Shown: positions 3,832 to 29,896, counted from the stretch's first letter. The stretch is 64,000 nt of DNA from a virus (IMGVR_UViG_3300031143_000003:19287-83286); one strand, 5' to 3'. The notes: generated from the sequence alone by a model not told the origin. A program made the numbers and translations.

Positions 3832-4464
3832 TTAGTCGAATTTATCTACACATATTGGAGGAGTATGTCTAACAATATATGTTGGCTCATTTTCAGTATA
3901 CAGCCTAATGTTTTTAGTTGTATGCAATACGTTGTTAATAAATCGCCAATCATGTGAGTATTCTGGGGTTGTTGTTATTGTTTTGGCTATGGATGATTTT
4001 ACAATTATTTCCTGATGGCCTACCTTGTCTTTTGCCCAGATGGGAGTTCTATAGCAATTATGTGGAGATACCCATGTCCTATATGCTGCCATGTCTAGAT
4101 CTGAATCCTCTACGCCACCTAGATATGTTTCAACATGATTGGGTAGCACAATATCGTCATTACCAATAAAGATTAGGTATTTACCAGTAGATTTAGCAAT
4201 ATACTCATTATAAATCGCATAACCATATCCACCAGTGTTTGTTGGTTTATTGTGTATTGTTAGATTCATGCCAAATGATTTCGCTACCCTTTCGTACAGT
4301 TTGGTTTCGCCAGTATCTACCATATGCTGGAATTCCGGACATCCATCGCCGATAACAAATACTTCAATATTGTTGGTTACGTTTTGATTTAGTATGCAAT
4401 TTATGGCTCGTCGGGTTCTACCTGGACGACCAAAACATGGCATTATGATAGTTAATCTATTCAT
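3832..4464 (-). CDS. Glycosyltransferase family 2 (GT-A)
   Basis: IIMPCFGR N-terminal strand, VIGDG and FIGNDD (DxD-like) motifs. Confidence 0.8.
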   Translation of the reverse strand: MNRLTIIMPCFGRPGRTRRAINCILNQNVTNNIEVFVIGDGCPEFQHMVDTGETKLYERVAKSFGMNLTIHNKPTNTGGYGYAIYNEYIAKSTGKYLIFIGNDDIVLPNHVETYLGGVEDSDLDMAAYRTWVSPHNCYRTPIWAKDKVGHQEIIVKSSIAKTITTTPEYSHDWRFINNVLHTTKNIRLYTENEPTYIVRHTPPICVDKFD

Positions 4465-5489
4465 TGTGATTCCTTATTATGTAGCAGTCCATATAGCATA
4501 TGATCAGAAAGTATCTGTTGACCAGACTTATTGTTATGTTTACTGAATGATGGTGATTCATCATGGTAGAATGCAATGTCCTTACCAAAATAATGCACGT
4601 TACCCAATATTAGACATAAATCAACGTCTTGGAAATTCTTTTCCAGTGATGGATTATATCCACCAATTGATACAAATTGTTCCAGTTGTATCATGTGCAT
4701 AGCTCCAGTTACAAATGCTGCGGTTGAATCAACTGATGCTGCTGGATCATTCGTGAACCGATACATGTGTATTGGCGAATATTGTAATGGACTCTCCGGT
4801 GTTTTAACAAACCCACCGCCACCGAATTGTATTGTGCCTCTCCACTTCCCCACCATACTTGGAAAGTTGTCTAGTATGTTCTGTGTATCACCATGTCCCA
4901 TTGAGTATTCATCTGGTGGATATAGCAACTTAGCACCTGATATTGTTGATCCAAGCTTATTGTGTTTTTCAATGAACCTATGTAGATTTGATATGTCTGA
5001 TATGAATAGGTCAGCATTCCACATTATTACCTGTGTATTTCCTAGATCATGGCATACCTTTGCAGCAAGATTACATAGCATCGAAAAATTGAATGTTGAG
5101 TCATAGTCGACTCTCAGGTACGATACGCAATATTTCGATGCAATACTACCAATATCTTCAGTTGACCTGTCGTCGACAATAATAACATTCATTAGATCAA
5201 ATGCACCCGTTTCCTTCATGCAATCCATACACATTGTAACTATGTCACTGCAATCACGAATTGGTATTATCGCAGTCGGCTTTGATGCATCATAATTCAA
5301 TTGTTTAGTAAATGAGCATTTGTAATCTACAAACCTATTTGCCAAAACAGCATTGTTAAAATTATTTACTGATATTGACGTCTGATTTTGTTTGTGTTCA
5401 AATGTGTTTCCAATATTACCTTTACCGAATATTGTGCATGTCATTGAATCTGACATGTCTTGTCTGAGATAGTTGGATATATTTTTCAT
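4461..5489 (-). CDS. Glycosyltransferase family 2 (GT-A)
   Basis: IIPIRD, VDDRS, NFSMLCN, WNAD, VTGA, GGY and QDVDLC motifs. ATG at 5489 overlaps the upstream TAA (TAATG coupling). Confidence 0.85.
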   Translation of the reverse strand: MKNISNYLRQDMSDSMTCTIFGKGNIGNTFEHKQNQTSISVNNFNNAVLANRFVDYKCSFTKQLNYDASKPTAIIPIRDCSDIVTMCMDCMKETGAFDLMNVIIVDDRSTEDIGSIASKYCVSYLRVDYDSTFNFSMLCNLAAKVCHDLGNTQVIMWNADLFISDISNLHRFIEKHNKLGSTISGAKLLYPPDEYSMGHGDTQNILDNFPSMVGKWRGTIQFGGGGFVKTPESPLQYSPIHMYRFTNDPAASVDSTAAFVTGAMHMIQLEQFVSIGGYNPSLEKNFQDVDLCLILGNVHYFGKDIAFYHDESPSFSKHNNKSGQQILSDHMLYGLLHNKESQ

Positions 5490-6622
5490 TATTTCCAATT
5501 GTTTATTAATGATACAATGGTTTCACAATCGTCGGCTGTCATAAATGGATGTATTGGTAGACTAACCAGTCGCTTTGCATTATCCCTAGTACGGACATTT
5601 ACATTCTCAGAATACAATTGATCGGCATATGCAACTGTTTCTTCTATGCAAATTGGATAATGTATTCCAACTTGAACACCATTTGATTCCATATACTCCA
5701 TAAATTCAGATCGCCTATTTTGATTAATCAATATTGGGTACACATGGTAAACTTGACTATTGCACCAGTCTGCTGATGTTGCCAACGGGTTTTCAACGTT
5801 GATATTATCTATCTTAGAATAATACTTAGCCCATTTGCGTCTTGCCGAATTCCAGTCTGATAGGTGAACTAGTTTTTCGTCCAATATTGCAGCCTGTATG
5901 GTATCTAATCTATAATTTGCACCCTTTACAATGTGCTCATATTTTACAATCGATCCCATGTTCCGTATCAACCGGCACTGGCTGTCTAAATGTGTGTTAT
6001 TTGTTGTAATCAAACCAGCATCTCCAGCAGCTCCCAGATTCTTTCCTGGATAACATGAGAATGCTGATATATCTCCAAATGTTCCAACGTTCTGTCCATC
6101 ACAAACAGCGCCATGTGCTTGAGAGCAATCTTCCAATACTCGTGCATTTGTTGACTTAGCTATTTTCATTATGCTGGTCATATCACATGGATGGCCATAC
6201 AGGTGGACTGGAATTATCAGGTGTTCTGATTTGGAGTCGACACTTATTGTTTTAAGTAGTTCATCTTCCAATAATCCTACGTCCATTTGAAAATGATCAT
6301 CATGGTCAATTAGATGAATCGTACAATCGCCGTTTAATGCTTGTTCTGGGCCAAATACAGTTGCAATGAATGTATTTGCTTGAGTATATATGTGAACATG
6401 CCTATCAAATCCCAATGCTAGAGTTGCGACACGTAATGCATCTGTTCCGTTTGATACCCCAATACAATGTGTATTATTATTCCATTTTGCAAAATTGCGT
6501 TCGAATGTTGCAACATCGGGTCCAAGTATAAACGGACAGTTTTCCAATATTGATGTTATTCTTGGGTAGGCTGAATCCTTGATGATTTCCCACTGTTTTC
6601 CTAAATCGTTGAATTTGATCAT
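5489..6622 (-). CDS. DegT/DnrJ/EryC1/StrS PLP-dependent sugar aminotransferase
   Basis: VSNGTDAL, PVHLYG, EDCSQAHGA, SCYPGKNLGAAGDAG (PLP Lys) and LSLP(I)HP-type motifs. Confidence 0.92.
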   Translation of the reverse strand: MIKFNDLGKQWEIIKDSAYPRITSILENCPFILGPDVATFERNFAKWNNNTHCIGVSNGTDALRVATLALGFDRHVHIYTQANTFIATVFGPEQALNGDCTIHLIDHDDHFQMDVGLLEDELLKTISVDSKSEHLIIPVHLYGHPCDMTSIMKIAKSTNARVLEDCSQAHGAVCDGQNVGTFGDISAFSCYPGKNLGAAGDAGLITTNNTHLDSQCRLIRNMGSIVKYEHIVKGANYRLDTIQAAILDEKLVHLSDWNSARRKWAKYYSKIDNINVENPLATSADWCNSQVYHVYPILINQNRRSEFMEYMESNGVQVGIHYPICIEETVAYADQLYSENVNVRTRDNAKRLVSLPIHPFMTADDCETIVSLINNWK

Positions 6623-6623
6623 A

Positions 6624-7511
6624 TTATTTCTCTATATTTTTATTTGAAATTACTGCTCGTCCTTCTTGTCCTTCCCAATCACGATTAACTCTAACGTCGT
6701 TGTTTTTGTCTGCAACGGCCTGTAGTAATATTGGGTTGATTCCAAGCTCAGTTGCTTGATGTATTAACGATGATAGATCTTTTGGAAAACAATGTCCACC
6801 GTAACCAAAATCTCCGTCTGGACCTGGTACATTCCAGTGCGAGTAACCTAACCTATCGTCATTGGTTGCATACTCTATTAATTTGTCGTAATCTAAGTCG
6901 AGTTTTTCACATATCTGATACATTTCATTTGCAAACGATACCTTTGTTGCCAAGAAACAGTTTGTTGTATACTTAACCATTTCAGCCATAGATGAACTTG
7001 TCTTTATAACTGGTACATTTGGAAATGCACGTTTAAATACCTGTTTAACAATGGTCGTTGCATCGCGAGGACCGCCAATAACGATTCTATTTTGATTTTT
7101 ATAATCATCAACTGCGTTAGCCTCTGTTAGGAATTCTGGATTGAATACAATGTCGATATGTGAAAGGGTATTGTTCCAATTTTGAGTTGTTCCTGGTGGG
7201 ATAGTTGATTTCACGACAAACGTTGAGCAGTATTGTACGTGCTTATCTGATAATGATGCGATATCATTAAGTTCAATCAATACGTCGTTTAGTATTCCCA
7301 AATGGCATGACCCATCCTCGCACATTGGTGTTGGTAAACAAACAAATATTACATCAGATACCTGAGATAAATGTTCGAATCCGCTCACACTCGAGCACTC
7401 ATCCTTGTATTTGTCATATGTTTCAACGTTAAAGTATTTTGACATACCTGCATTTACGGCTGATCCAACGAATCCTTGACCGACTATTCCTATTGTTCTA
7501 TTTCTTTCCAT
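6624..7511 (-). CDS. UDP-glucose/GDP-mannose 6-dehydrogenase family, lacking the C-terminal domain
   Basis: GIVGQGFVG, KSTIPPG, FNPEFL, K(Y)TTNCFLATKVSFANE and GYGGHCFPKD (catalytic Cys) motifs; only 295 aa. Confidence 0.85.
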   Translation of the reverse strand: MERNRTIGIVGQGFVGSAVNAGMSKYFNVETYDKYKDECSSVSGFEHLSQVSDVIFVCLPTPMCEDGSCHLGILNDVLIELNDIASLSDKHVQYCSTFVVKSTIPPGTTQNWNNTLSHIDIVFNPEFLTEANAVDDYKNQNRIVIGGPRDATTIVKQVFKRAFPNVPVIKTSSSMAEMVKYTTNCFLATKVSFANEMYQICEKLDLDYDKLIEYATNDDRLGYSHWNVPGPDGDFGYGGHCFPKDLSSLIHQATELGINPILLQAVADKNNDVRVNRDWEGQEGRAVISNKNIEK

Positions 7512-8365
7512 TACAGTTCCTTTATATAATCCATTAACCTGTCAACAGGCTTCCAATTCAAATTGTCTAGTGCGAAGTCATTCTCGCGTTTGGTTGCTCT
7601 GTAGTTACCAGGCTGATCACTTATGTATATACATTTAGTATTAAACCGACGGTTGAAGGCTCGGTAAACGTCATTCAGTGCATGGTTTGATCCAGTTCCA
7701 AGTTCCCAAGCATCATCTGGCGATACATCCGATTCGCTTATTTTTACTAGTCCATCAACAATATCGTCAATATGCGTAAAATCACGTTTCTGTTCACCAT
7801 CTCCAACAATTGTTATATCCTCTCCGTCTCTAGCTAAACGTCTCCATTTGCCAATTACCGCAGCCCAGTCGCCGTCTACAATTTCACCAGGTCCATATAC
7901 GTTATAGAACCTAACAATTTCTACGTCTAAGCCATACACTGACTTATACATTTTGCATAATTCTTCGCCTAAATGCTTCGCACTGGCATATGGCGATATA
8001 TGTGGATTATGCCATTTCGAAGATGATCCAGCATAAATAACCGATGCATTAATTTTTCTTGCATATCGCAATACTGCTTCTGTTCCGATTGTATTTACGC
8101 GGAATGTTTCAGATGGATTTTCAAATGATGGCTGTATTCTAGATAATGCGGCTAGATGGTATATTACATCAAAGTCGCTATCCATAAATGAAACGTTTTC
8201 AATGTCTCCAATGTGGTAGTTGCACCCATCCAATTCATTTGATACTAATCCACTATCATAATTGTCGATTGAATGTACATCATGGCCATTCAATATCAAC
8301 TGAGCTATCAGATTTGATCCAACAAACCCAGCTCCACCGGTAACCAATATTTTCTGTTTAGTCAT
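7511..8365 (-). CDS. NAD-dependent nucleotide-sugar epimerase/dehydratase (extended SDR)
   Basis: LVTGGAGFVG, HLAA, YASAK (YxxxK), RFYNVYGP and RDFTHIDD motifs. Confidence 0.9.
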   Translation of the reverse strand: MTKQKILVTGGAGFVGSNLIAQLILNGHDVHSIDNYDSGLVSNELDGCNYHIGDIENVSFMDSDFDVIYHLAALSRIQPSFENPSETFRVNTIGTEAVLRYARKINASVIYAGSSSKWHNPHISPYASAKHLGEELCKMYKSVYGLDVEIVRFYNVYGPGEIVDGDWAAVIGKWRRLARDGEDITIVGDGEQKRDFTHIDDIVDGLVKISESDVSPDDAWELGTGSNHALNDVYRAFNRRFNTKCIYISDQPGNYRATKRENDFALDNLNWKPVDRLMDYIKEL

Positions 8366-9236
8366 TTTCTAATATCTTCGTTATACTACGCGTTAATTGT
8401 TCTTGTTCAATATAAGAAAAATCCCTTACACCTAAAAATGATTCTATAGATATTTTCAGTGGGGATTCAGCATCAATTTCGATGTCAGCTGTCGAAGTGT
8501 TATTTGTATATGTTATTTTGCCAGTCATATCATCCCAATTCAAGTATGAATCATCTGCAAACGTTACAATTACTTCTCTATTCTTTTTAGCGTGTTCCCA
8601 ACTTGCATTGATAAATACACTAACCTTGCCGTATGTTAAACTACCAACACATGAATCGTCTTGTTCTGCCTGAACTGTGTCTCGACGATAATTAATCCAT
8701 GTTGACGATGATGGATCTACTCCAAACATTTTCTGGACAATTGATACATAGTGAGAGGCTAGATCATATTTTGCATTGCAGTCATATCGTACCGGTCCCT
8801 TATTTAGGAAATTCATAGATATCGATTTAACCTGTCCATATTTTTCTGAATTTACCATATCAATTATTGCATTTGCATGCATATTGAATGTAAATAGCCA
8901 ATCGACAAATAAGCCACAATTATTGTTTTTTGCTATAGTATACATTTCATCGACTTCAGCTGTTGTCATACCTAATGGTTTCTCACAAAATACGTCTACA
9001 CCATTCGATAAAAAATGCTTAACTACTTCATGATGGAATGTTGCAGGTACTGCGACGAATACCTTGTCTACATTTAGGGTAGTGTAATCTGACTCTAATT
9101 TGGTATAGTCACGTAATACGCCAGTATCTACATAGTTTGGTTCACATACAGTGACGTCCACTCCCAATCCAATTAGATTTTTGTATAGTATTTTACCCCA
9201 ATATCCAAATCCAACTAATCCTATTTTATTTTCCAT
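8358..9236 (-). CDS. Gfo/Idh/MocA oxidoreductase (WbpB/WlbA-like sugar 3-dehydrogenase candidate)
   Basis: GLVGFGYWG, VFCEKP and DLASH motifs; lies next to the DegT and acetyltransferase genes. Confidence 0.85.
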   Translation of the reverse strand: MENKIGLVGFGYWGKILYKNLIGLGVDVTVCEPNYVDTGVLRDYTKLESDYTTLNVDKVFVAVPATFHHEVVKHFLSNGVDVFCEKPLGMTTAEVDEMYTIAKNNNCGLFVDWLFTFNMHANAIIDMVNSEKYGQVKSISMNFLNKGPVRYDCNAKYDLASHYVSIVQKMFGVDPSSSTWINYRRDTVQAEQDDSCVGSLTYGKVSVFINASWEHAKKNREVIVTFADDSYLNWDDMTGKITYTNNTSTADIEIDAESPLKISIESFLGVRDFSYIEQEQLTRSITKILEND

Positions 9237-9684
9237 TATTCATTCCCTTTATTTCGGCTGCTTTGCCATATACTATTGAGTGTGCTGGAACGTCTTTTGT
9301 TACGACAGCGCCTGCTCCAATAATTGCTCCGTATCCAATTGATACTGGCAAAATTGTTGCATTTGATCCAATCCTAACATTGTTACCAATGATTGTCCTA
9401 CGCTGGATCCAGTTTTCAAGTGGAGCATCGAATTTATCATTAATAAACATTACGCCATGTGCAATAAAACAATCGTCTCCGATTATCGTATCTGAACATA
9501 CAAATGTATGGCTGCTTATCCTGGTTCGTTTTCCAATTGATGCGCCTGATTGTATTTCTACAAATGGTCCAACAAATGATCCCTCTCCAATATTGCAGCC
9601 ATATATGTTAACTGGTTCAATTATTTCAACATCATCATGTATGTTGGAAGTACTATCGTTAATGTTCGCTTGTTTTGTTTTCAT
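9226..9684 (-). CDS. Left-handed beta-helix sugar N-acetyltransferase (WbpD/QdtC-like)
   Basis: Hexapeptide repeats, VMFIND and IGSNATIL...IGAGAVVTKDVP motifs. Confidence 0.88.
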   Translation of the reverse strand: MKTKQANINDSTSNIHDDVEIIEPVNIYGCNIGEGSFVGPFVEIQSGASIGKRTRISSHTFVCSDTIIGDDCFIAHGVMFINDKFDAPLENWIQRRTIIGNNVRIGSNATILPVSIGYGAIIGAGAVVTKDVPAHSIVYGKAAEIKGMNNGK

Positions 9685-9687
9685 ACT

Positions 9688-9713
9688 GTAAATATAAGCA
9701 AAATAGCTTACAC
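9688..9713 (-). promoter_or_regulatory. Bipartite early/middle-type promoter motif (GTGTAA-N10-TTATATTTAC) heading the sugar operon
   Basis: Same spacing as seven other copies; ends 3 nt before the ATG at 9684. Confidence 0.6.
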
Positions 9714-9857
9714 CGGAAAGTTTTTAACTAGTTTTTTTAGTTTAATTTCCAATCTAGCTAATTCTTTTGTCATTCCTTGCATTACCCATCCATCGTAATG
9801 TCCTCTTGCCGCTAGTTCCCCACGCAAGTAGTTTATTCTTTCTTGTAGTTTTTCCAT
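9708..9857 (-). CDS. Small hypothetical protein (49 aa, not in track)
   Basis: Manual translation MEKLQERINYLRGELAARGHYDGWVMQGMTKELARLEIKLKKLVKNFPV; preceded by AGGA and fills the gap exactly. Confidence 0.6.
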   Translation of the reverse strand: MEKLQERINYLRGELAARGHYDGWVMQGMTKELARLEIKLKKLVKNFPV

Positions 9858-9864
9858 TGTTTTC

Positions 9865-10302
9865 CTATTGTATTGTTCTGATGTCTAGATCAAATCTGTA
9901 GTCTATTAGTTGGACTAGTCCCATTTTATTTGGGAAGATTGTCCTATAACTATTTGAATACATTGAATCCATGTTACTAGACAATTTACTGTGATAGAAC
10001 CGCTGTGATGATTCATTCATGATCAATTTTGGTATTTCTAGTGCACGTTTTCTGTATTTCGGTATTATCCTAACACCAGTTCTCCTAGCCATTGCATTGA
10101 ACTGAATACTTGACATTAAATTTAAGTTTAGCACATGTACCTTGTTTTCCCAAATTGGATTTAGTACCAGCCACATGTAATTATCAGATTTATTGTCTAG
10201 GTTAGTATACCTATTTTGTATTACCATACCCTTCTGCAAAGCAGACTTTGGTATAATAACCGAAGATTGCTTTGCAGTTAAGTGTTGGTTATGATAATTC
10301 AT
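9865..10302 (-). CDS. Hypothetical protein (145 aa)
   Basis: ORF track; contiguous with its neighbours. Confidence 0.6.
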   Translation of the reverse strand: MNYHNQHLTAKQSSVIIPKSALQKGMVIQNRYTNLDNKSDNYMWLVLNPIWENKVHVLNLNLMSSIQFNAMARRTGVRIIPKYRKRALEIPKLIMNESSQRFYHSKLSSNMDSMYSNSYRTIFPNKMGLVQLIDYRFDLDIRTIQ

Positions 10303-10779
10303 TTAGATGTCGCCTAAACTGTACCCATTAACGTTTTTTGCAGCTTCTATGAATGTAGCATAGTATTCTGCACCATCCATATCTATTTTCTGCGTATAAT
10401 CAACGTCCTTTGAATACTGTGCTTTTTCTGATATAGTCAGTGTTTTTATTTTGGCATAACACCACCTAATACTTTCAATTTGTTCTCCAACTGGAAATAT
10501 CATTGCCTCACCAGTATTCATTGTCGTTGGATACCAGTATTTTTCACCATCATCAAATCGAAGGGCCTTTATTGCTGCCGGCATCTTCTGCTCATATGTT
10601 GATATGTCAAAATCTGGGTTATCCTTGTGGTTTAATGGATAGTTTTGAGTATAATATCCAGAACTAAGGTCCATCTCAGATTGACCGTTTTTATCGTCGT
10701 ATTCAAGTAACACTTGTTGTTTTCCGGTTATTGGTGATTTTGCCCAATATTCTTCACCGATTTTTTCAATATCATTCAT
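10303..10779 (-). CDS. Hypothetical protein coupled to GT4 gene
   Basis: ORF track; TAATG overlap with the GT4 stop at 10779. Confidence 0.65.
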   Translation of the reverse strand: MNDIEKIGEEYWAKSPITGKQQVLLEYDDKNGQSEMDLSSGYYTQNYPLNHKDNPDFDISTYEQKMPAAIKALRFDDGEKYWYPTTMNTGEAMIFPVGEQIESIRWCYAKIKTLTISEKAQYSKDVDYTQKIDMDGAEYYATFIEAAKNVNGYSLGDI

Positions 10780-12020
10780 TAGTTGCTCCCTATTTGTGGT
10801 ACATATTGTCCAATTATCTTATTAAAATCAGAATTCATTTTTTTGATTGAAAAATTATCCTTAATATACTGTGTCTGTTTTCTAGATCGTTGCATATGTT
10901 TCTTGTATTGCTTATGTACATCTCTGATTATTCCAGATGCATGATTATAGTCAACATAAAACCATTTTGATTCTGGCAATATTACATCCTTCCATACAGC
11001 TGACTTGTGCACGTTTCGTAATGTGCCTGTTAACGGTATACAGTGTTCAGATAAAAAGTCAACGTGTCCAGACCAGTTAGGGTACATTATTGGTTTACCG
11101 GTTATTCCGAATTCCAATAGTGGACGTCCAAATCCTTCGCCGTGCGTGAAGCTGATCATTGCCTTAACTTTATTGTGATTATATAAGCCATTTAATTCCT
11201 GTTGTGTCATGTCGCCATGTATCAGGTATATCTTTGGCAATATTGCACCATCTACCGATTTGTAAATTTTAGATATCTTTTCAAGTATAGATTCCCTATC
11301 GGTTAATGAGAATGTTGCAGATGACGTCTTAAGTATTAGCGCTGGCTGATTTCGCTGTGCAATGCCCTTAAATGTTTCTAAGAATGTACGAATCATGCCT
11401 CCAACATCTTTCCTATCATGTGAGAAATCACCAGCTAGCCAATGTCCAACAAATAGATAGCAGAATTCTTCTGGTATAGTTGATATGTCGGTTGATACTA
11501 TTTCAGGAATATCATCAGTCTTTATGAACGTAGACAAGTCAAGTCCCTCAAACAATACAACAATTTCGGGGTTAACTGATAACGATCTAACTGTCTCATT
11601 TGTCTTTGAATCTCGTATGTCAAACGTACTATTTTTCAAGGATGTTTTTGCATGCTCAGATGGCACAATTATTAAATCCATGTTATTGCATCCTTCAACC
11701 CATTGACTAGATGCAGAAGTTGTTTCAATACCCGCTGTTATTCCAATGTTATATTTTCCAACCTTTTGAAATTCATTTGGTACAGTTATTTGTACCCAAA
11801 TATCTGGTTGTTCATCAAAGTTTTTGCGCATGATACGACTAGTTATTTCAATATCGTCATCCGTTAGTGCGTTTCTACTACATGATCCCCAACGCTGATC
11901 CATTATTTTTACGTCGAATCTGTTCATTGCAATTAGACTTCTAATTATGTCTCGACTGTGATCACCATACCCGCTTCTACTCGATGCTGGGCAACTTATA
12001 ATTAATGTCTGTTTATTCAT
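10779..12020 (-). CDS. Glycosyltransferase family 4-like (GT-B)
   Basis: SRSGYG N-terminal motif, LFVGHWL and HGEGFGRPLLE (E-x7-E). Confidence 0.85.
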   Translation of the reverse strand: MNKQTLIISCPASSRSGYGDHSRDIIRSLIAMNRFDVKIMDQRWGSCSRNALTDDDIEITSRIMRKNFDEQPDIWVQITVPNEFQKVGKYNIGITAGIETTSASSQWVEGCNNMDLIIVPSEHAKTSLKNSTFDIRDSKTNETVRSLSVNPEIVVLFEGLDLSTFIKTDDIPEIVSTDISTIPEEFCYLFVGHWLAGDFSHDRKDVGGMIRTFLETFKGIAQRNQPALILKTSSATFSLTDRESILEKISKIYKSVDGAILPKIYLIHGDMTQQELNGLYNHNKVKAMISFTHGEGFGRPLLEFGITGKPIMYPNWSGHVDFLSEHCIPLTGTLRNVHKSAVWKDVILPESKWFYVDYNHASGIIRDVHKQYKKHMQRSRKQTQYIKDNFSIKKMNSDFNKIIGQYVPQIGSN

Positions 12021-13423
12021 TATACTAGGGCTCCTGATGGGTATTGTTGTTTTTTGATTGATGCATCTATTAACGTGTATCGTTGTCTAGGCTTAAACGT
12101 TGATATGCATGTGTCAATTGACTTCGACATTGTATCTGTCATACCTTTGGCATTAAATCCATTTTCAATTGCCCAATCTCTTCCAATTGCGCCATGATCT
12201 GATCTATTTGATTTTGGCATATTGTGCCAATACATTAACCCAGATGTTATCTGGTCAATACTAACCCTAGAATCATATATGTATGGTGTTGGTGGAGAGC
12301 CTTGTAAATTTATTTGGGGCCATAATGGATACGTCCATGATCCGTGATCCTCACTTATTTTTCCAGTGCTATTGCTTGGTGTATCTACAGTAAAATCATC
12401 TATTGTAATATACTCTCCTCGATTGTTTCTGAATCCCATTTGATCTTGTAGTCCACCTAGTACTGATGCTATTGTTGGTGTTCCTGACATAATTGCCTCC
12501 ATGTGGGATAATCCAAATCCTTCAGCTGAGCTTGGATTACATACGACATCTGCCATATTGTACAAATAGTTCATGGCTATATTTGGTAGCTTTTCTGCAC
12601 TGAATATAACGTCATATTCCGGACATAGTGCTGCGACTACTGCTGGTAAGTCGGTACCATTCTCATCAACTGGATCAGTATGCAATAACAATGCGCATTT
12701 TGACGATTCTTCAGGCGTCAATTTGTCACACATAGCTTTAAATCCAACTATTAAATCGGATATTGATTTTCGTCTAATGTTTCTGCTGTTTAGTAATGCA
12801 ATGAAGTCGTAATCTTTTCCAGATGTAGCAGTTTTTTTGAATGCTTCATATTTTGCATCATTTACTATTGGAAAAAATACATTTTCATCTATACCATGTG
12901 GAACGTATGTTAGGTCTACACCATCTAGTCTTGGTTTACGTTGACATACATGTTTGTTTATATTGTATGTCTGTTTTGATATTGCCATAAGCAAATCGCA
13001 TGATTCATATGCATTTTCATTCCAATGTGGGTATGGTAAATCGTCCCAAATATTGTAATACATAATTGGAATGTGCTGGCGGATCTCATGCTCCATCTGA
13101 TATAGCCAACCCCAAAATCTAGGATCAGTAAAATGCAATATAGCATCAATTTCTTCAGTTGCCAATATATGTCGTATTAAATCGGGAGTACCATATCCAG
13201 AAACGGGATATATCTTAACACTTGCATCCAATACACCGGTATCATCTGCTACAGCTTGTGATAAATCCAATTGCTTTCCAGCCTCAGGATGATTCATAGC
13301 TCCACCGATCTGTACCCAGTCGTACCTATCTACTGTTCCAGTGATTATTGATTTTGACATTGTACCAATGCCAGAATTCAATCTAAAGTCATCACCAAGG
13401 AATAGTATTTTCTTCTTCTTCAT
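12020..13423 (-). CDS. Glycosyltransferase family 4-like (GT-B)
   Basis: DD.R..SGIG, VPHGI, RNIRRK and SAEGFGLSHME (E-x7-E) motifs. Confidence 0.87.
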   Translation of the reverse strand: MKKKKILFLGDDFRLNSGIGTMSKSIITGTVDRYDWVQIGGAMNHPEAGKQLDLSQAVADDTGVLDASVKIYPVSGYGTPDLIRHILATEEIDAILHFTDPRFWGWLYQMEHEIRQHIPIMYYNIWDDLPYPHWNENAYESCDLLMAISKQTYNINKHVCQRKPRLDGVDLTYVPHGIDENVFFPIVNDAKYEAFKKTATSGKDYDFIALLNSRNIRRKSISDLIVGFKAMCDKLTPEESSKCALLLHTDPVDENGTDLPAVVAALCPEYDVIFSAEKLPNIAMNYLYNMADVVCNPSSAEGFGLSHMEAIMSGTPTIASVLGGLQDQMGFRNNRGEYITIDDFTVDTPSNSTGKISEDHGSWTYPLWPQINLQGSPPTPYIYDSRVSIDQITSGLMYWHNMPKSNRSDHGAIGRDWAIENGFNAKGMTDTMSKSIDTCISTFKPRQRYTLIDASIKKQQYPSGALV

Positions 13424-13480: not shown

Positions 13481-13882
13481 TTAATTTATGATAACGACCG
13501 ATTTTCCCAACTTTTTTGTATGTTTTATCGTGTCCATTGGACCATTTGCTTTCACGTTTGATGGTATAAACGCAATTAGACAATTAATATCCTTTGCTAA
13601 CATTTTATTTCGATGAAAAAAGTTTTTTGGCGCGTAATCTTTGTTGTAAAAATGCTCATTCATGGCTGAATAAAGGTTCTTTTGTGTATGTGATGGATTA
13701 TGTTCTATATATTTGCAGCCTAACACTAGTGCATATTTTCTAATGAATTTGTCTGCTCCAGCTCCACTTCCACTCGATATTATTACCAATTCTTCACCAA
13801 ATCGCTGTTTTAGCTGATATATTACATCTTTTATTTTGCGGCCATTGTTGTAATAATTACTACCTATTAATCCTATCCGCAT
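13481..13882 (-). CDS. SLOG/DUF2493-like (YspA-related) protein
   Basis: MRIGLIGS, IISSGSGAGAD, FHRN..LA and G(P)MDTI..TKKLGK motifs. Start moved to the second Met. Confidence 0.65.
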   Translation of the reverse strand: MRIGLIGSNYYNNGRKIKDVIYQLKQRFGEELVIISSGSGAGADKFIRKYALVLGCKYIEHNPSHTQKNLYSAMNEHFYNKDYAPKNFFHRNKMLAKDINCLIAFIPSNVKANGPMDTIKHTKKLGKSVVIIN

Positions 13883-14799
13883 CGTAGTTGTCTTTGTTTT
13901 GGTGGACATAGGTCGTGCTCTTTCTTAAACGGACAGTATGTACAATCAGTTTTATATGCAGGATATTCTGAATCTTTGTTGTATGATCCATCTGCGTTAA
14001 ATGCAGTTTCAACAAACTCCTTCATAATATCATCAGTCTTTTTTATGGATGGTTTACCAGATGCCGGCTTATAAACTTGTACTCTAGGTATCTCAAAATC
14101 TGCGCCTTCCCATATCTTACGTTTTACAATAAAATATTCTATTTCAATATTTTTTATATCAACGTCATATTGTCTAGCAAAAAAGTGCTTGTATAGCCTA
14201 AGTTGGTTTCCCTCTTTCTTGCGCTTCTTATCTTTCCATCCCATATATGAAGTTTTAATGTCGATGATTTTAATTGTATCACCATCTTTAATAACCAAAT
14301 CCATGAATCCCATGAACATTATATTTGAGTTGTATTCTACTTCATGAAATATTGGCATTTCAATACCAACTAATTCCATTTTTGTTTTTGAAAAATATCT
14401 ACTTCTAGTTTTTTTGAAATATTCAATAATAGCGACACCGTCTAAATAAAAATCTCCCATTTCAGTTGGATTACTGAAGTGGTCACCACCTTGCTCCTCT
14501 ACTCGAGTTGCATAGTCAGTGGACATTTTTGTCTTTAACATTTCTATCAGGTCAAGTTGTTCAGCCGCTACGATAGATGTATTGTACATTATATCTAAAT
14601 ATTCCTGTAGAACCTCATGCATCGCTGTTCCAAACACTAAGAACATATTTGGTTCAAAGCGTTTGTGTCCATCAATTCTCTGTAGTTTCCAAGATAGTGG
14701 GCAATTTGCATATGTTCCGAGTTGAGAATACGATATCGTTTTCTTTCCCATCTTTTTTGCAGCTATTGCGTAATCCAGTGGTGTCTTAAGTTGTGCCAT
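13873..14799 (-). CDS. PD-(D/E)XK nuclease (RecB/Cas4-like exonuclease)
   Basis: ISYSQL..Y..CP, FGTAMHE, GFMDLV...IIDIKTS, QL..Y and C-terminal CxxC-x8-C motifs. Confidence 0.82.
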   Translation of the reverse strand: MAQLKTPLDYAIAAKKMGKKTISYSQLGTYANCPLSWKLQRIDGHKRFEPNMFLVFGTAMHEVLQEYLDIMYNTSIVAAEQLDLIEMLKTKMSTDYATRVEEQGGDHFSNPTEMGDFYLDGVAIIEYFKKTRSRYFSKTKMELVGIEMPIFHEVEYNSNIMFMGFMDLVIKDGDTIKIIDIKTSYMGWKDKKRKKEGNQLRLYKHFFARQYDVDIKNIEIEYFIVKRKIWEGADFEIPRVQVYKPASGKPSIKKTDDIMKEFVETAFNADGSYNKDSEYPAYKTDCTYCPFKKEHDLCPPKQRQLRCG

Positions 14800-17198: not shown

Positions 17199-17224
17199 GT
17201 AAATATAAGAAAAAAATATGACTT
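17199..17224 (-). promoter_or_regulatory. Bipartite early/middle-type promoter (AAGTCA-N10-TTATATTTAC)
   Basis: Repeated motif upstream of groES. Confidence 0.6.
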
Positions 17225-19661
17225 ACGACACTTTTTCTTTATATTTTTTTAATATTTCTGATACTTGTGGTATTATGCTGAATTCATCGAGTTGATCTAA
17301 TACTTGCTTCTTAAAAAATGTGTCATAATCTATGTCAAATTTATCAGTTGCGTCTATTAGGTGCAAATCATCTTCATTTAGGCATATTGCTCTGTGTCTT
17401 TCACGAGGCTTAAGCTCTTCTTCGCATTTAGATATAACATAATACAATAGCGGATTGTCAACGTTGGTTATATTTGTACCAAGTATATCATTCGTCCATT
17501 TTGCTGCCTTTACGTGCTGTGGCATTGTTTTCTTATATTCATCAAATCTTCTCGAGAATGATTTTGCCAATCCTAAATCAGCATAATCAACTGATTCAAC
17601 CTCTTCACGTAATCGGACTAGATGGCCAAGTGTTAATTGTTTTTTAACAGATAATTCGGCCAATTCATCTAACTTCACCTTCATGAATTTAGGTGCATCC
17701 TTTCTAATAATGTTTAGACCCCTAATGTATCGTTTATTTGACCCCTTCTGTATTGAGTAATATCGTTTCTTAGATGTACCAAAGTAGATGTGATCTAGAT
17801 CCTTTTCAAACTTTAAGTTCATAAAGAAATAGTCTTCATCAATTGCAGTTGCAAACTCTGGCGCAAACTCTGTTTTGAGCTGTTCATCAAATACCAATAG
17901 ATTCTTCTTCAGTTCAGGTATAGGTTTTCCGTTTAATTCAATGAAGATTGAATCGGTATCTCCATATAAAATATGATGTCCCAAATCTCGTTGCATTTTT
18001 ACTGATGCGAATTTCAATGCATTTCTAGCAAAGTAGGTGGTTGCATCTGCGCATTCTGGTTTATATAGTCTAAAGAAATTGAATCCCATTGCACCATACG
18101 TTGAGTTTAGAATAAGCTTAATCGCACCCTGTTTCTTTTCTGCTGAATACGCTTCATCTTCTGTCTCATATTCATTTGCGTCTAGTTTGCGGTTTATTTC
18201 AACACGCATTAGGAATAGATCCTTTAATAGATACGGTATAATTCCCAGTTTGTGTTTATGTCCATAGAATATGTACCTTCCACCATATATACTTTCATCT
18301 ACGCCAGTATCTATATAATCGATTTTCTGCGATTTGAGTTGGTCAACTATTTCGTCAATATCCATTCCAGCAATTTCACATTGTTGCTTCGACGCTATGA
18401 ATGTTTCAGGACTAATATTGAACGCCATAATTGTTGTTGGATATAACGAAGTATAATCCAATACTGCGACATCCCTATGTGCACCAGGCTTAGTTGGATC
18501 CAATACCATTGCACCAGCAAATGGTTGCCGTGGACTGGTTACCCTAGTTGGGAACACCATTTTTCCGTGGAATTCCTTTAGAATATAATTATCGACAATC
18601 ATTGATTTGAATAATACCAATCCAACGGATGGTAAGTTTGCAATCTGCTGCAGTGTATAATACAGTTCAAATATATCTAGCTTTTCGGCTATTTCAACTA
18701 ATATTTCAACATCCCTTATTCCATATTTTAGGAATCCAGAATAGTCGTCCATCCAATTTTTCCAAGTTGATTGTGTCAATTTTTCTATACTTGGATCATT
18801 TAGTATTTCTTTTGCAGCCGTTGCAAGTTTCCAGTTTGGTAAATTATAACCAAGATCCTGTAATGCATCCATCATATCGATGTGATCACGCCCAGTCATA
18901 AATATTTTCCAATATTCCCTACTCTTATATATTTTAATATAGTTTGTTGGGGATAGTTTCTTGTAGTCTATACCAATGTTCTTTGACCTGTTTATGATGT
19001 ATGGTAAATCATACTGACTAGAATACCATCCTGTCAATATGTCTACGTTGTACATATCTATCATATTATAGAATGTTAGTAGCATTTCATGTTCAGTCTT
19101 CGTGAAAATGAATACTTTGTTACCTTCAACAACTGATTTTGGCTCATCGTATGTTTTTGTGTGTTCAGGATGCCAAGACAATACATAGTATTTCTTATGC
19201 ATATTTGAGTACATCTGAATCGATGTAATTGGCATTCGAGCTACTTCCGGACTGTTTGCTGAATTGTCATTTGGATCATACCATGTTTCAATATCAAAGT
19301 ACATTAGGTGACGTTTGTCTGACCACTCTAATTTCTTATCTAATACATACTTGAATTCAGGTTGAACATCAGCCTCAAACGTTCGAGTTGGATGCAACTT
19401 AGATATTGCACGTACATTCTTTACGGATGTATAGAATATCTTTCTAGCTGGTTCATCGTATATACTTTTTACATGTTCATCGCTAATCTCGAATCCAGTA
19501 TAATCAATCAAGTCATCCAAATGTTCTTCCGCGTAGTAAAAATAATCCTTAAAGTTATTCACCTTAGTTACATTTTTACCTTCAGCATCGTAGCCAAATT
19601 GATGTATTTTCCAGAGTCCCCTATTGAACTCTGAACATACTCTTGCTAATTTAAAACTCAT
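17223..19661 (-). CDS. Family B DNA polymerase (gp43-like)
   Basis: Exonuclease motifs FDIET and FDLPY-like YDLPY; polymerase motifs DYTSLYPT, KLILNSTYG and YGDTDS. Confidence 0.95.
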   Translation of the reverse strand: MSFKLARVCSEFNRGLWKIHQFGYDAEGKNVTKVNNFKDYFYYAEEHLDDLIDYTGFEISDEHVKSIYDEPARKIFYTSVKNVRAISKLHPTRTFEADVQPEFKYVLDKKLEWSDKRHLMYFDIETWYDPNDNSANSPEVARMPITSIQMYSNMHKKYYVLSWHPEHTKTYDEPKSVVEGNKVFIFTKTEHEMLLTFYNMIDMYNVDILTGWYSSQYDLPYIINRSKNIGIDYKKLSPTNYIKIYKSREYWKIFMTGRDHIDMMDALQDLGYNLPNWKLATAAKEILNDPSIEKLTQSTWKNWMDDYSGFLKYGIRDVEILVEIAEKLDIFELYYTLQQIANLPSVGLVLFKSMIVDNYILKEFHGKMVFPTRVTSPRQPFAGAMVLDPTKPGAHRDVAVLDYTSLYPTTIMAFNISPETFIASKQQCEIAGMDIDEIVDQLKSQKIDYIDTGVDESIYGGRYIFYGHKHKLGIIPYLLKDLFLMRVEINRKLDANEYETEDEAYSAEKKQGAIKLILNSTYGAMGFNFFRLYKPECADATTYFARNALKFASVKMQRDLGHHILYGDTDSIFIELNGKPIPELKKNLLVFDEQLKTEFAPEFATAIDEDYFFMNLKFEKDLDHIYFGTSKKRYYSIQKGSNKRYIRGLNIIRKDAPKFMKVKLDELAELSVKKQLTLGHLVRLREEVESVDYADLGLAKSFSRRFDEYKKTMPQHVKAAKWTNDILGTNITNVDNPLLYYVISKCEEELKPRERHRAICLNEDDLHLIDATDKFDIDYDTFFKKQVLDQLDEFSIIPQVSEILKKYKEKVS

Positions 19662-19668
19662 ATTTTTA

Positions 19669-20106
19669 TTATTTTACACCAGTTGATCCAAACCCACCAG
19701 TACCACGTGTAGATGACTCGGAATATAATATATTTTCTTTGACTATTTCAACAGTTGGATCACCTAATGGCAATAAAACAAATTGTACTATCTTATCACC
19801 TGCCTCAATATGTTGAACTTGTTGACCAACATTGGTTAAGTGAATATGTATTTCACCTTGATAACCACTATCTACAACACATGCACCAACTTGTAAGTTT
19901 TTTCTAGTTGCTACTCCAGATTTATTGAATGCTATTAGTGCGAATCCAGCCGGCACATTAACCATTATTCCTGATGGTATCATTACTGCATCACCAGCGA
20001 GTAATGTTGCAGTATGGAAATCCGTTGGGACGAAGAAATCAATTCCAGCGTCTGTTGAGTTTGCCCTAGTTGGGGATTTAACGTCTCTAACTTTTGATAT
20101 TTTCAT
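19669..20106 (-). CDS. dut: Trimeric dUTPase
   Basis: AGIDF, NKSG, VVDSGYQGEI, IVQFV and RGTGGFGSTG (motifs 1-5). Confidence 0.95.
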   Translation of the reverse strand: MKISKVRDVKSPTRANSTDAGIDFFVPTDFHTATLLAGDAVMIPSGIMVNVPAGFALIAFNKSGVATRKNLQVGACVVDSGYQGEIHIHLTNVGQQVQHIEAGDKIVQFVLLPLGDPTVEIVKENILYSESSTRGTGGFGSTGVK

Positions 20107-21236
20107 TATAACCTTTCCTTTATTATTGCTGCAAATGTCTCTGCAAATTCAGTTTTATCTAATCCGCGTTTTACGTCTGCATATTGTTCGCGAATTAATT
20201 TGTCAAATGCAGACGGATTATTTTTTAAGAATACTAATCTTGATTCAACGTCTTCTCTACTGTCAACGTAGCAAAAGTTGCGAGTCAATTCATTCCTAAA
20301 TATTTTCATTTGGGGATCATATTCCCTATCAATAAAGCATACAACGTTTCCTAATATCGCCTCATTTGTCCGATTCGATATTGCAGCGTTCTCATATTTT
20401 TTGTCACTAATTGTTACCGTAGCTATAGACTTCTGATATGCACTAAAGAAATCTCTATGTGCAACCTTCTTTCCAAATGATGGATAACGCATGTCACCTA
20501 CTCGTTTTGGATTAAAATGTTTATGTTTAATATTACCAAACATAAGTACAGCCGATGTTTCAGCATATCCGAAATAGTATTTTAGCATTTTATCCTGTCT
20601 ATGTCCACCTCTAAATGTTCCACCATATACTAAATCAAGCATTCTATCCTCAATTGGTATAATCGGTATTGGCTCATATTCGTGAACAAGATATTCATGG
20701 AATGGGAAATACACAATATCTGCGTATTCTATTTCACGTTTTTCAAGTATAACCTTTAATCCATCGATGTCGTATATCTGCGATATCATGACAATGTCGG
20801 TTCTAGTTATCTCGATTTGATCTTGAGTATATTTGTTTTTCCATTCGTATTTGACTTGCTTGTCTTCTACACCTTTCCACATTTGAGCTAGAGGCAGTAA
20901 CCAGTCAGTCAACACGTAGTATACGGGACAACTTGATTTGTTTATAAATGAATATGTCATTAGGTCGCCACGGGTTTCACAACCTCCGTAGAAATTAACG
21001 TTACCATTTAATACAACCAATGCGTCATATTCATTGTATGCTGATTCATCAAAATCGTTTATATCGTGAAACGTAGCTTCAGGCAATTCAACCCAATTCC
21101 TAGTTTTGATTGTATAGTAATGTACATCATGACCACATCTATGTAGCATCTTTATAACTGCATGTACTTCGTCTGTCAATAGACTACCATTCGCAGCAGT
21201 TATGTTTGCTCCAATCTTTAATACATTTATTTTCAT
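20106..21236 (-). CDS. DNA beta-glucosyltransferase-like (T4 BGT homolog)
   Basis: Segments LNGNVNFYGG, YYVLTDWLLPLAQMW and LDLVYGGTFRGGHRQDKM parallel the recalled T4 BGT segments VNSSINFFGG, YYLFTDIRLPFSQSW and LDVIYGGSFRSGQRESKM. Similar length. Confidence 0.8.
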   Translation of the reverse strand: MKINVLKIGANITAANGSLLTDEVHAVIKMLHRCGHDVHYYTIKTRNWVELPEATFHDINDFDESAYNEYDALVVLNGNVNFYGGCETRGDLMTYSFINKSSCPVYYVLTDWLLPLAQMWKGVEDKQVKYEWKNKYTQDQIEITRTDIVMISQIYDIDGLKVILEKREIEYADIVYFPFHEYLVHEYEPIPIIPIEDRMLDLVYGGTFRGGHRQDKMLKYYFGYAETSAVLMFGNIKHKHFNPKRVGDMRYPSFGKKVAHRDFFSAYQKSIATVTISDKKYENAAISNRTNEAILGNVVCFIDREYDPQMKIFRNELTRNFCYVDSREDVESRLVFLKNNPSAFDKLIREQYADVKRGLDKTEFAETFAAIIKERL

Positions 21237-21508
21237 TGTTGTTCCTTTATATAGTTATCTAATCCACCGATATATGCTACAGCGTCGAGTAGATTATCTT
21301 CCCTGTAATTATATGAGTGTCTTGACATTTTCAATGCAACAAGTACAATAAACATATCCTCTCCAGAAAATGATTTACCAGACATTCCGCTTGCAATCAT
21401 TGCTGCTCTGTCCATACCTTCACTAAATGGTCCATATTGGCGCTCTTTTTCGTCTGATCGATTATTCACGATCGCATCAGCTTGTGCTAAGATTGATTTT
21501 GTTTTCAT
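21233..21508 (-). CDS. DUF6378-like all-alpha protein (putative nucleotide pyrophosphohydrolase)
   Basis: A..IV..R..QYG...and LK.SR......DN..D...Y pattern; sits inside the modification operon. Confidence 0.65.
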   Translation of the reverse strand: MKTKSILAQADAIVNNRSDEKERQYGPFSEGMDRAAMIASGMSGKSFSGEDMFIVLVALKMSRHSYNYREDNLLDAVAYIGGLDNYIKEQQ

Positions 21509-22332
21509 ATAAATAGTTTTTTTGCTGTTTCTTTGGTGAATGTTAAGATCTCATCCTTTGTCATATCATCTACTGGCATATACAATTTATTATCAATAAT
21601 ATAATCAGTTGTAATATGTCTATGCAATATACTTGATTTGGTTGATGCGTCTACATTGTCATGGTAGATCTTGTCTCGCATGTCGTAGTGCGCTTCATAC
21701 AAATGTAGACTTCCTGCATAATGGTAATATGACCCAAGCTCTAAATCAGGATATATTTCACGAAGATCATTTAACATCAGTTGTTGAAACAGCGCAAATG
21801 TGTATACATCATTGCATAATCCAAATATAACATCGTTTGATCGCATATTTACACCCAAATGCAATTCATTATTTCGAATAAAGAATTGCAAATATTGTGT
21901 GCATGGAAGATCCTGTTTGTTTTTTGTCTTATGATGCGGCTGATGTATTACAATAGTGCATCGTCTGGAATCAATGTCTCGATTGAATTCTGATTTTATC
22001 CAGTCCCATTGTTCGCCCAATATATACGTGCCATAGTTTGATTCAACTTCATCTTGATTATCCTTGATCTTCAGCCAAATTCCAGCATGCTTACCAATAT
22101 TATTAGTACGCTTATTCTGCGACAAATACCACAAGAACTCCATAACTGAATAGTTTTCGTTGAATTTTCTAGATGGAAAATCAATTGATAATCGAGTTGG
22201 ATCATTTAACACAAAAGACTGAAACAAAAGTTCAGTCTGTGTGCTACCATTACTATGTATCTCTGATCCGTATTCAGAGATTTCGTACAATTTGTCAAAA
22301 AACAAATCATGTAGACTATTGAATCTATTCAT
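21505..22332 (-). CDS. dCMP hydroxymethylase-like (thymidylate synthase fold, gp42-like)
   Basis: Catalytic Cys in LPCTQ. MRSNDVIFGLCND has Asp at the specificity position (T4 gp42 FRND; TS uses PFN). GSLHLY motif. Upstream of the BGT-like gene. Confidence 0.8.
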   Translation of the reverse strand: MNRFNSLHDLFFDKLYEISEYGSEIHSNGSTQTELLFQSFVLNDPTRLSIDFPSRKFNENYSVMEFLWYLSQNKRTNNIGKHAGIWLKIKDNQDEVESNYGTYILGEQWDWIKSEFNRDIDSRRCTIVIHQPHHKTKNKQDLPCTQYLQFFIRNNELHLGVNMRSNDVIFGLCNDVYTFALFQQLMLNDLREIYPDLELGSYYHYAGSLHLYEAHYDMRDKIYHDNVDASTKSSILHRHITTDYIIDNKLYMPVDDMTKDEILTFTKETAKKLFI

Positions 22333-22355
22333 ATGTGTATAACCTTTTATTTAAA

Positions 22356-22381
22356 GTAAATATAATAAAAAAAATTGACAT
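22356..22381 (-). promoter_or_regulatory. Bipartite early/middle-type promoter (ATGTCA-N10-TTATATTTAC)
   Basis: Repeated motif heading the modification/PolB operon. Confidence 0.65.
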
Positions 22382-27691: not shown

Positions 27692-27717
27692 GTAAATATA
27701 AGAAATATATTTGACAT
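27692..27717 (-). promoter_or_regulatory. Bipartite early/middle-type promoter
   Basis: ATGTCA-N10-TTATATTTAC. Confidence 0.6.
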
Positions 27718-29870: not shown

Positions 29871-29896
29871 GTAAATATAAGAATTTTTTTTGATAT
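29871..29896 (-). promoter_or_regulatory. Bipartite early/middle-type promoter
   Basis: ATATCA-N10-TTATATTTAC upstream of the ssb gene. Confidence 0.6.

Follow-up and report, generated by a model that had tools for sequence, protein, structure and literature searches.

Phage T4 swaps cytosine for sugar-coated hydroxymethylcytosine (hmC), an anti-restriction modification whose signature enzymes are a deoxycytidylate (dCMP) hydroxymethylase and a beta-glucosyltransferase (BGT). Homologs of both enzymes are encoded in a stretch of viral DNA of 64,000 nucleotides (IMGVR_UViG_3300031143_000003:19287-83286), here called the window, in which they belong to a minus-strand block of five tightly packed genes together with the replicative DNA polymerase. 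The window comprises bases 19287-83286 of a 147,286-bp IMG/VR virus record with a CheckV completeness of 86%, and the sequence sources are assembled contigs from 2019 marine metagenomes. The best reading of the block, and a highly probable one as far as sequence comparison reaches, is that the phage would carry glycosylated hmC DNA made by T4-type pre-replicative replacement of cytosine followed by post-replicative glycosylation.

Several related systems have been described outside the T-even phages. The Enterococcus phages VPE25 and VFW, near relatives of the phage nattely, were shown in 2016 to have bisulfite-resistant cytosines (PMC4999554). In environmental phages, MetaGPA has tied cytosine modification to homologs of thymidylate synthase (TS), and a survey of IMG/VR lists contigs with a GT-B glycosyltransferase (GT) plus ThyS beside polymerases (bioRxiv 10.1101/2023.12.21.572611). 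A study from 2026 shows that 5-hydroxy-dCMP, and not 5-hydroxymethyl-dCMP (hm-dCMP), is the product of the TS homologs of RB69, DLP3, RL38JI and others. The glycans of phage DNA glycosylation are diverse as well, with arabinose in RB69 and DLP3 and galactofuranose in RL38JI (PMC13326640 for both points); heptose and Kdo are also among the published phage DNA sugars.

The hydroxymethylase and glucosyltransferase homologs

Five minus-strand open reading frames at 17223-22332 encode, in this order, a TS-fold enzyme, a DUF6378 protein, a GT of the GT-B fold, a dUTPase and a family B DNA polymerase (PolB) (Table 1). In this order, the first three neighboring pairs overlap by 4, 4 and 1 nt, and the last pair is separated by 7 nt. 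The Pfam assignments of all five proteins exceed the curated cut-offs and PHROGs concurs, which bears out the gene content and packing claimed in an earlier note made from the sequence alone. The identical five-gene order is found in three independent contigs (L004, L012 and L013), with BGT homologs ∼77 to 78% identical, and is therefore not due to chance. At least 16 marine metagenome runs contain the stretch; when searched as nucleotides, the entire region gave no match among cultured phages.

The best matches of the TS-fold protein among all PDB sequences are the CMP hydroxymethylase MilA (3.8e-20) and the T4 dCMP hydroxymethylase (2.4e-19). Thymidylate synthases match only at 3e-8 or weaker, ∼12 orders of magnitude behind MilA and T4 gp42, in agreement with the gp42-type assignment of the earlier note. 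The PF00303 score of 61.7 bits lies above the cut-off of 24.3.

The active site was compared in a MAFFT alignment of the window protein with Escherichia coli ThyA, T4 gp42, RB69 gp48 and five BGT-linked homologs. The catalytic cysteine is present (window Cys144, ThyA C146, T4 C148), and Glu65 corresponds to the conserved E58 of ThyA. Asp175, contained in the segment ...GLCND..., takes the position of ThyA N177 and of T4 D179 and is of the cytosine-specific type. This confirms the claim that Asp stands where thymidylate synthase has Asn, and the motif MRSNDVIFGLCND quoted for the enzyme is present in its translation. Asp167 aligns with ThyA D169 and T4 Asp171, whereas RB69 shows Asn186 in the same alignment, as published. 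Asp at both ThyA positions 169 and 177 is found in all 7 of the 7 aligned BGT-linked or T4 TS homologs.

An acidic residue at the position of ThyA Leu143 admits water, leading to a hydroxymethyl instead of a methyl product. HMMER pairs window Asp141 (QDLPCT) with Asp145 of T4 (SDFMCT) and the corresponding Asp of MilA (IDVACT) at this position, an assignment that rests on the ungapped count from the catalytic cysteine. The 5-hydroxy-dCMP synthases and the hydroxymethylases share N177D and the acidic residue at 143, and Asn at 169 is diagnostic of the former (PMC13326640). All four diagnostic positions of that study are of the hm-dCMP type in the window protein, and a 5-hydroxy-dCMP synthase of the RB69 gp48 type is ruled out on this basis because Asp167 preserves the Asp of ThyA position 169. 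On all published sequence criteria, the TS-fold enzyme is predicted to be an hm-dCMP synthase, as opposed to a thymidylate synthase, dUMP hydroxymethylase or 5-hydroxycytosine (5hoC) synthase. The genome record contains a ThyX gene at G000:6526-7137 (1.2e-51), so that dTMP synthesis can proceed without the TS-fold enzyme; no second TS-family gene was found in the record.

The GT shows equally close ties to T4 BGT. The PHROG BGT profile phrog_7922 spans residues 1-372 of its 376 residues, the PDB entry of the T4 enzyme (1bgt) matches at 1.8e-35, and tblastn aligns 96 to 100% of its length to annotated b-gt genes of T4-like and Enterococcus phages with 28 to 35% identity. The alignment by eye along the full length of T4 BGT, on which the earlier note relied, thus holds. 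The T4 residues E22, D100, R191, R195, Y261, R269, and E272 correspond to E23, D111, R209, R213, Y281, R289, and E292 of the window protein, and all seven functional residues are invariant or nearly so in a 12-sequence alignment. The catalytic base Asp111 and Glu23 are invariant in the 12 homologs, the catalytic Asp column being marked directly by the D100A mutant chain 1nzd. Arg191, Arg195, Tyr261, Arg269, and Glu272 of T4 BGT are the residues that bind uridine diphosphate (UDP). The window protein belongs to the BGT family by all sequence criteria. BGT homologs are accompanied by a TS homolog in 9 of the 9 contexts examined (the window, L004, L012, L013, L005, L006, L014, the P0008 contig, and Enterococcus phage nattely), and in the Ralstonia phage RsoM2USA a TS homolog lies ∼4.6 kb from the BGT gene.

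Predicted pathway and competing explanations

A multistep pathway is proposed for the locus. The TS-fold enzyme, judging from its active-site residues, would convert dCMP with methylene-tetrahydrofolate and water to hm-dCMP. This product would be phosphorylated to hm-dCTP by a kinase that may be a host enzyme, a phage AAA_33-type kinase or an enzyme encoded in the 14% of the genome that is missing, followed by incorporation of hm-dCTP by the PolB of the same unit. Since the catalytic Asp and Glu and the UDP-binding Arg and Glu are conserved, the BGT homolog would then flip hmC from the duplex DNA and attach a beta-linked hexose taken from a UDP-sugar, the simplest donor being host UDP-glucose. 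The dUTPase would feed dUMP to the separate ThyX and may hydrolyze dCTP too, and the DUF6378 protein would be a conserved accessory with a probable role in the nucleotide pool. By analogy to T4, the modification would be expected to protect the phage from restriction enzymes and from some CRISPR nucleases. The route from cytosine to hmC to glycosylated hmC, as put forward in the earlier note, passes every sequence test applied, including the retention of Asp169.

Alternative activities of the TS-fold enzyme carry very little probability. N177D and the acidic residue at 143 are common to this enzyme and the 5hoC synthases, and MilA is the top structural match for the latter as well; a flavin-dependent enzyme of the RB69/DLP3 type that makes 5-hydroxy-dCMP, with the sugar ether-linked to the C5 hydroxyl, is nevertheless extremely improbable, as the D169N exchange is absent and, in the 5hoC systems known so far, the arabinosyl or hexosyl transferases are GT4-like and do not belong to the BGT family. 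An enzyme acting on dUMP, as thymidylate synthase or as dUMP hydroxymethylase, would leave the GT to modify hydroxymethyluracil or a non-DNA acceptor. Pfam and PHROG do label the protein a thymidylate synthase, and a handful of its relatives in phages bear the annotation deoxyuridylate hydroxymethyltransferase, but the Asp at the specificity position, the supply of dTMP by ThyX, and the DNA-glucosyltransferase residue set of a GT kept in T4-like synteny with the hydroxymethylase make this hardly credible. The same pathway with a sugar other than glucose on hmC, delivered by the sugar operon of the phage or produced by GT2 and GT4 enzymes extending a first glucose to an oligosaccharide, is somewhat less remote, though still quite improbable. 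The sugar operon is present and is preceded by the same class of promoter-like motif as the hmC unit (9688-9696), so that both are probably expressed simultaneously, and published phage systems use phage-made nucleotide sugars and several GTs, GT-A enzymes included. Against this stand the distance of 10 kb between operon and hmC unit, with GroES/GroEL and a nuclease between them, the identity of the UDP-binding and catalytic residues with those of T4 BGT, and the persistence of GT4, a protein of about 420 aa, GT2 and a different sugar pathway in the relatives L019 and L020, which have no BGT.

The preferred reading, glycosylated hmC made by the T4 route, also has to accommodate several observations that count against it. 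In the 147-kb record, phmmer searches with T4 gp56 (dCTPase) and T4 gp1 (kinase) gave no homolog, nor was thymidylate kinase (PF02223) or a dCMP deaminase found, and the profiles of dUTPase_2 and MazG (PF08761 and PF03819) gave no match at E<=1. Phmmer searches of the same record with the P-loop proteins that flank the TS homologs in nattely and L020, and with the Tmk-like protein of L014, likewise gave no match; the sole free-standing kinase candidate is an AAA_33/Zeta-type protein. Complete replacement of cytosine is not assured, because homologs of dCTPase, kinase and dCMP deaminase were not found. At the residue level, MAFFT places a gap in the Leu143 column because of a 4-residue loop deletion, and the assignment of Asp141 hinges on where this deletion is placed. 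Most 4-bp palindromes containing cytosine (GATC, GGCC, CCGG, AGCT) are not avoided genome-wide; CATG is the sole clearly underrepresented one (observed-to-expected ratio of 0.72, z about -9), and these statistics are uninformative on modification. A working module with only partial or conditional replacement, for want of a dedicated dCTPase and hm-dCMP kinase, would account for the missing gp56, MazG, dUTPase_2, gp1, Tmk and deaminase homologs. This is unlikely. It is countered by the 86% completeness of the record, by trimeric dUTPase genes in or beside the BGT/hydroxymethylase cassettes of two unrelated lineages (those of the window phage and of Enterococcus phage nattely), and by the recurrence of DUF6378 in BGT/hydroxymethylase-type modules, since DUF6378 or dUTPase could supply the missing activity.

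Transcription, accessory protein and genomic setting

The earlier note had placed the five genes under one promoter. A generic sigma-70 consensus scan gives no backing to this, with 57 sites found against 51 expected by chance, and a terminator scan is likewise no better than chance. Support comes from a phage-specific motif with the core TATATTTAC (fuller consensus tGCTTATATTTAC). Genome-wide, the coding strand carries 14 copies of the core and the opposite strand two, and 10 of the 14 coding-strand copies are intergenic in a genome with only 7.8% noncoding DNA. Copies of tGCTTATATTTAC usually lie 23 to 29 nt ahead of a start codon. One copy precedes the hydroxymethylase gene and the next precedes GroES, and the five-gene block between them (22356-22364 to 17199-17207) holds no further copy. 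Given this bracketing and the packing of the genes, a single transcription unit is a reasonable inference. Further copies are located at 9688-9696, in front of the sugar operon's first gene, at 27692-27700 and 29871-29879, and in a small-ORF early region (window-relative 114041-125569). The motif precedes replication, nucleotide and early genes and is similar to, yet distinct from, the late motif of the genome, ATATTTAT(A/T). It probably represents an early or middle promoter class.

Table 1. Positions of the five-gene block, its bracketing motifs and other loci named in the text
Feature	Position	Strand	Remarks
Promoter-like motif TTATTATATTTAC	22356..22368	-	23 nt upstream of hydroxymethylase start; core 22356-22364; putative promoter
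T4 gp42-type dCMP hydroxymethylase (predicted), TS fold, 275 aa	21505..22332	-	PF00303 8e-17
DUF6378 protein, 91 aa, helical bundle	21233..21508	-	PF19905 1e-8
T4 BGT homolog, GT-B, 376 aa	20106..21236	-	PF09198 1.2e-19; phrog_7922 6.7e-55
Trimeric dUTPase-family enzyme, 145 aa	19669..20106	-	PF00692 8.3e-20; phrog_135 4.6e-37
PolB, family B replicative DNA polymerase, 812 aa	17223..19661	-	PF00136 5.7e-45; exonuclease domain PF03104 1e-16; phrog_262 2.6e-98
Promoter-like motif TTCTTATATTTAC	17199..17211	-	24 nt before GroES; core 17199-17207; likely end of five-gene unit
GT4	12020-13423		Part of glyco-island 3832-13423; three proteins of no assigned function between GT4 and sugar operon
Sugar operon	3832-9684		Acetyltransferase (hexapeptide), Gfo/Idh/MocA, SDR epimerase, UDP-sugar dehydrogenase, DegT aminotransferase, two GT2s
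CofD-linked BGT locus, L002 (Ralstonia phage RsoM2USA)	7992-10983
CofD-linked BGT locus, L005	8001-12430
CofD-linked BGT locus, L006	1035-9118
CofD-linked BGT locus, L014	5822-13720
DUF6378 fusions in metagenomic proteins			With TS, dUTPase, PRA-PH (MazG-like) or HTH: P0052, P0039, P0045, P0048, P0059, P0047

The DUF6378 protein scores 35.7 bits with PF19905 (gathering threshold of 27.1), and 51 of 51 aligned relatives match the family as well; 448 relatives are found at E<=1e-3. The AF2 model shows a helical bundle with a pLDDT of 91.7. Structure searches of the PDB (Foldseek, VIA-align) return only generic helical bundles, the best MazG match having an E value of 6 and a TM score of 0.3, and a search of AFDB returns only other DUF6378 entries and weak rows of a "nucleotide modification associated domain." A MazG/gp56-like dCTPase is not supported, with hhalign probabilities of <1% against T4 gp56 and two PRA-PH domains. 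The Walker-A-like loop ASGMSGKS was also rejected as a P-loop: the Gly is kept in 37 and the Lys in 32 of the 51 relatives, and the segment lies between helices. No match to DUF6378 was obtained by tblastn against cultured phages.

The charged residues Arg17, Glu20, Arg23, Lys60, Arg63, Asp71, and Asp75 are invariant or nearly invariant, which suggests a ligand site. Ten longer relatives were scanned and contain one DUF6378-TS fusion, two DUF6378-dUTPase fusions, two PRA-PH-DUF6378 fusions and one fusion with an HTH domain. On the P0027 contig, DUF6378 is encoded near a T4 alpha-glucosyltransferase homolog (PF11440), dUTPase_2 and PolB, and the gene is kept in the cassettes of L004, L012, and L013. 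The protein is a probable nucleotide-pool accessory. A more specific role as a working part of pyrimidine hypermodification that has so far gone unrecognized, in which a helical nucleotide-binding enzyme or subunit would supply a step clearing dCTP/dCDP or channeling hm-dCMP, would fit the conserved charged cluster (Glu19/20 included), the TS, dUTPase and PRA-PH fusions and the BGT- and AGT-type neighbors, but is offered only tentatively and is rather doubtful.

The dUTPase, with a PF00692 score of 71.3 bits, contains all five motifs of the family (AGIDF, NKSG, VVDSGYQGEI, DKIVQF, and the C-terminal RGTGGFGSTG). It shares 66% identity with its counterpart in L020, a relative without BGT, and PolB shares 54%. 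The dUTPase is therefore regarded as a core gene of the lineage paired with PolB and not as specific to the cassette, and from these identities the dUTPase-PolB pair is taken to be ancestral within the lineage. Upstream of the five-gene block lie genes for a class II ribonucleotide reductase and a 4HBT thioesterase, and downstream those for GroES and GroEL; almost all genes of the window lie on the minus strand. The slot between ribonucleotide reductase and dUTPase-PolB varies. It holds hydroxymethylase-DUF6378-BGT in the window phage, L004, L012, and L013, whereas in L020 (925-2192) it contains a 173-aa P-loop protein and a very divergent TS-fold protein of 249 aa, with no GT in the slot. The L020 TS-fold protein has PCT, RSCD and Asp at ThyA position 177, with a Pfam E value of 7.7e-4 that falls below the cut-off. 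In L019 (1-946; upstream end cut off), GTP cyclohydrolase I and a dCTP-deaminase-like gene lie ahead of PolB. The locus may accommodate different DNA-modification cassettes in L019 and L020. The hydroxymethylase-DUF6378-BGT core is a rare accessory inserted ahead of the ancestral dUTPase and PolB genes; the phage lineage itself is marine and widespread.

The special link to the replicative polymerase that the earlier note had drawn is not borne out. T4 shows the order 43-imm.1-imm-42-b-gt and CC31 the order 43-x-42-GT-b-gt, and in RB69 the whole modification cluster lies between gene 43 and uvsX, so that proximity to the polymerase is the T4-like norm; in addition, the dUTPase-PolB pair is ancestral.

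The suggestion that the donor sugar comes from the nucleotide-sugar pathway of the phage itself, an acetamido-uronate pathway, is weakened by the relatives without BGT. L019 and L020 share the backbone PolB-GroES-GroEL...PD-(D/E)XK-SLOG-GT4, followed by a protein of about 420 aa and then by GT2 and sugar genes, with a different sugar chemistry (formyltransferase, FdtA, methyltransferases). Close GT4 homologs (∼60% identity or better) number >7,400, compared to 22 for BGT. The sugar island is thus a trait of the lineage and not tied to the hmC cassette. It would act on some other target, which may be the virion, the host envelope or DNA, and host UDP-glucose would be the default donor of the BGT homolog. 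GT4 was considered as a second DNA glycosyltransferase tied to hmC and rejected, being near-universal in the lineage, including the relatives without BGT. The two GT2s show no similarity to the second DNA glucosyltransferase of CC31, the beta-glucosyl-HMC-alpha-glucosyltransferase, and were rejected as its counterparts.

Within the sugar operon, the UDP-glucose/GDP-mannose dehydrogenase-family protein (6624-7511) has only 295 aa. Its matches cover the central domain and, from profile position 70 onward, the N-terminal one, which leaves no room for the usual C-terminal UDP-binding domain; the protein is either truncated or atypical. A PD-(D/E)XK nuclease and a SLOG/DprA-like (YAcAr) protein (13481-14799) directly precede GT4, and this trio is kept in L012, L019, and L020. 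Upstream of the window, ThyX adjoins an ATP-dependent DNA ligase (G000:C1:6493-8494).

The more distant BGT homologs show a neighborhood of their own. They almost always adjoin a large CofD-like protein (2-phospho-L-lactate transferase family) and an NTP_transf_3/IspD-like nucleotidyltransferase, near a TS homolog and sometimes with a SIS domain protein. This CofD-BGT-TS grouping seems to represent an as yet undescribed way of elaborating glycosyl-hmC with phospho groups; the genome record of the window phage has no CofD. In the 54.6-kb Logan contig L005, whose module is BGT-CofD-IspD-TS-dCMP deaminase, the BGT and TS homologs translate only with TGA as Trp (code 4), and L005 is therefore a recoded phage.

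Comparison with described systems

The kind of system encoded in the window is well known from T-even phages, Enterococcus phages, MetaGPA and the IMG/VR survey, and the locus adds a new uncultured marine T4-like phage carrier. The carrier is regarded as new because its PolB is at most ∼25% identical to any cultured phage polymerase and its DNA recurs in marine metagenomes. The earlier note had called the host phage nonenterobacterial. This is true, given the marine metagenomic origin, but it is not new in view of the precedent of VPE25 and VFW from 2016. If the reading is correct, glycosyl-hmC DNA would occur in an abundant uncultured marine myovirus lineage, which would bear on the recovery of such phages by sequencing, cloning and restriction-based methods and on the host defenses that shape marine phage-host dynamics. 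The main interest lies in the DUF6378 protein and in the dCTPase and kinase that were not found. The T4 pathway would here be rebuilt with other accessory parts, and the locus would offer a compact system for asking which activities cytosine replacement truly needs and what role DUF6378 plays.

The contigs of the IMG/VR survey belong to the same class of object, a T4-BGT-like GT-B beside a thymidylate synthase homolog and a DNA polymerase. That survey is statistical, and its accessible part does not describe the lineage of the window, the DUF6378 component or the lack of dCTPase and kinase. RB69, DLP3, and RL38JI likewise have an N177D TS homolog beside GT genes and the polymerase, and a phage nucleotide-sugar pathway in the genome. 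In contrast to the window enzyme, with Asp169 and a BGT-family partner, their TS homologs carry D169N, form 5-hydroxy-dCMP and are combined with GT4-like transferases (PMC13326640). Their sugar genes lie inside the cluster, whereas the sugar island of the window is separate and is also found in relatives without BGT.

The Enterococcus siphophages VPE25, VFW, and nattely are nonenterobacterial as well and show a compact cassette of hydroxymethylase, trimeric dUTPase and BGT. Their cassette differs in a small P-loop gene upstream, probably encoding a kinase, and in the lack of DUF6378; phage type and polymerase differ too, and the BGT proteins of the window and the Enterococcus phages are ∼29% identical.

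T4 encodes a homologous hydroxymethylase and BGT with conserved catalytic residues, the hydroxymethylase gene lying upstream of the BGT gene and near a family B polymerase. Compared to T4, the record of the window phage is without a gp56-type dCTPase, a gp1-type kinase, an alpha-glucosyltransferase and a dCMP deaminase (147 kb, 86% complete). Trimeric dUTPase and ThyX replace gp56 and td, and a DUF6378 gene is placed between the genes of the two enzymes. The polymerase gene of the window lies downstream of hydroxymethylase and BGT, that of T4 upstream, and protein identity between the two systems is only ∼27%.

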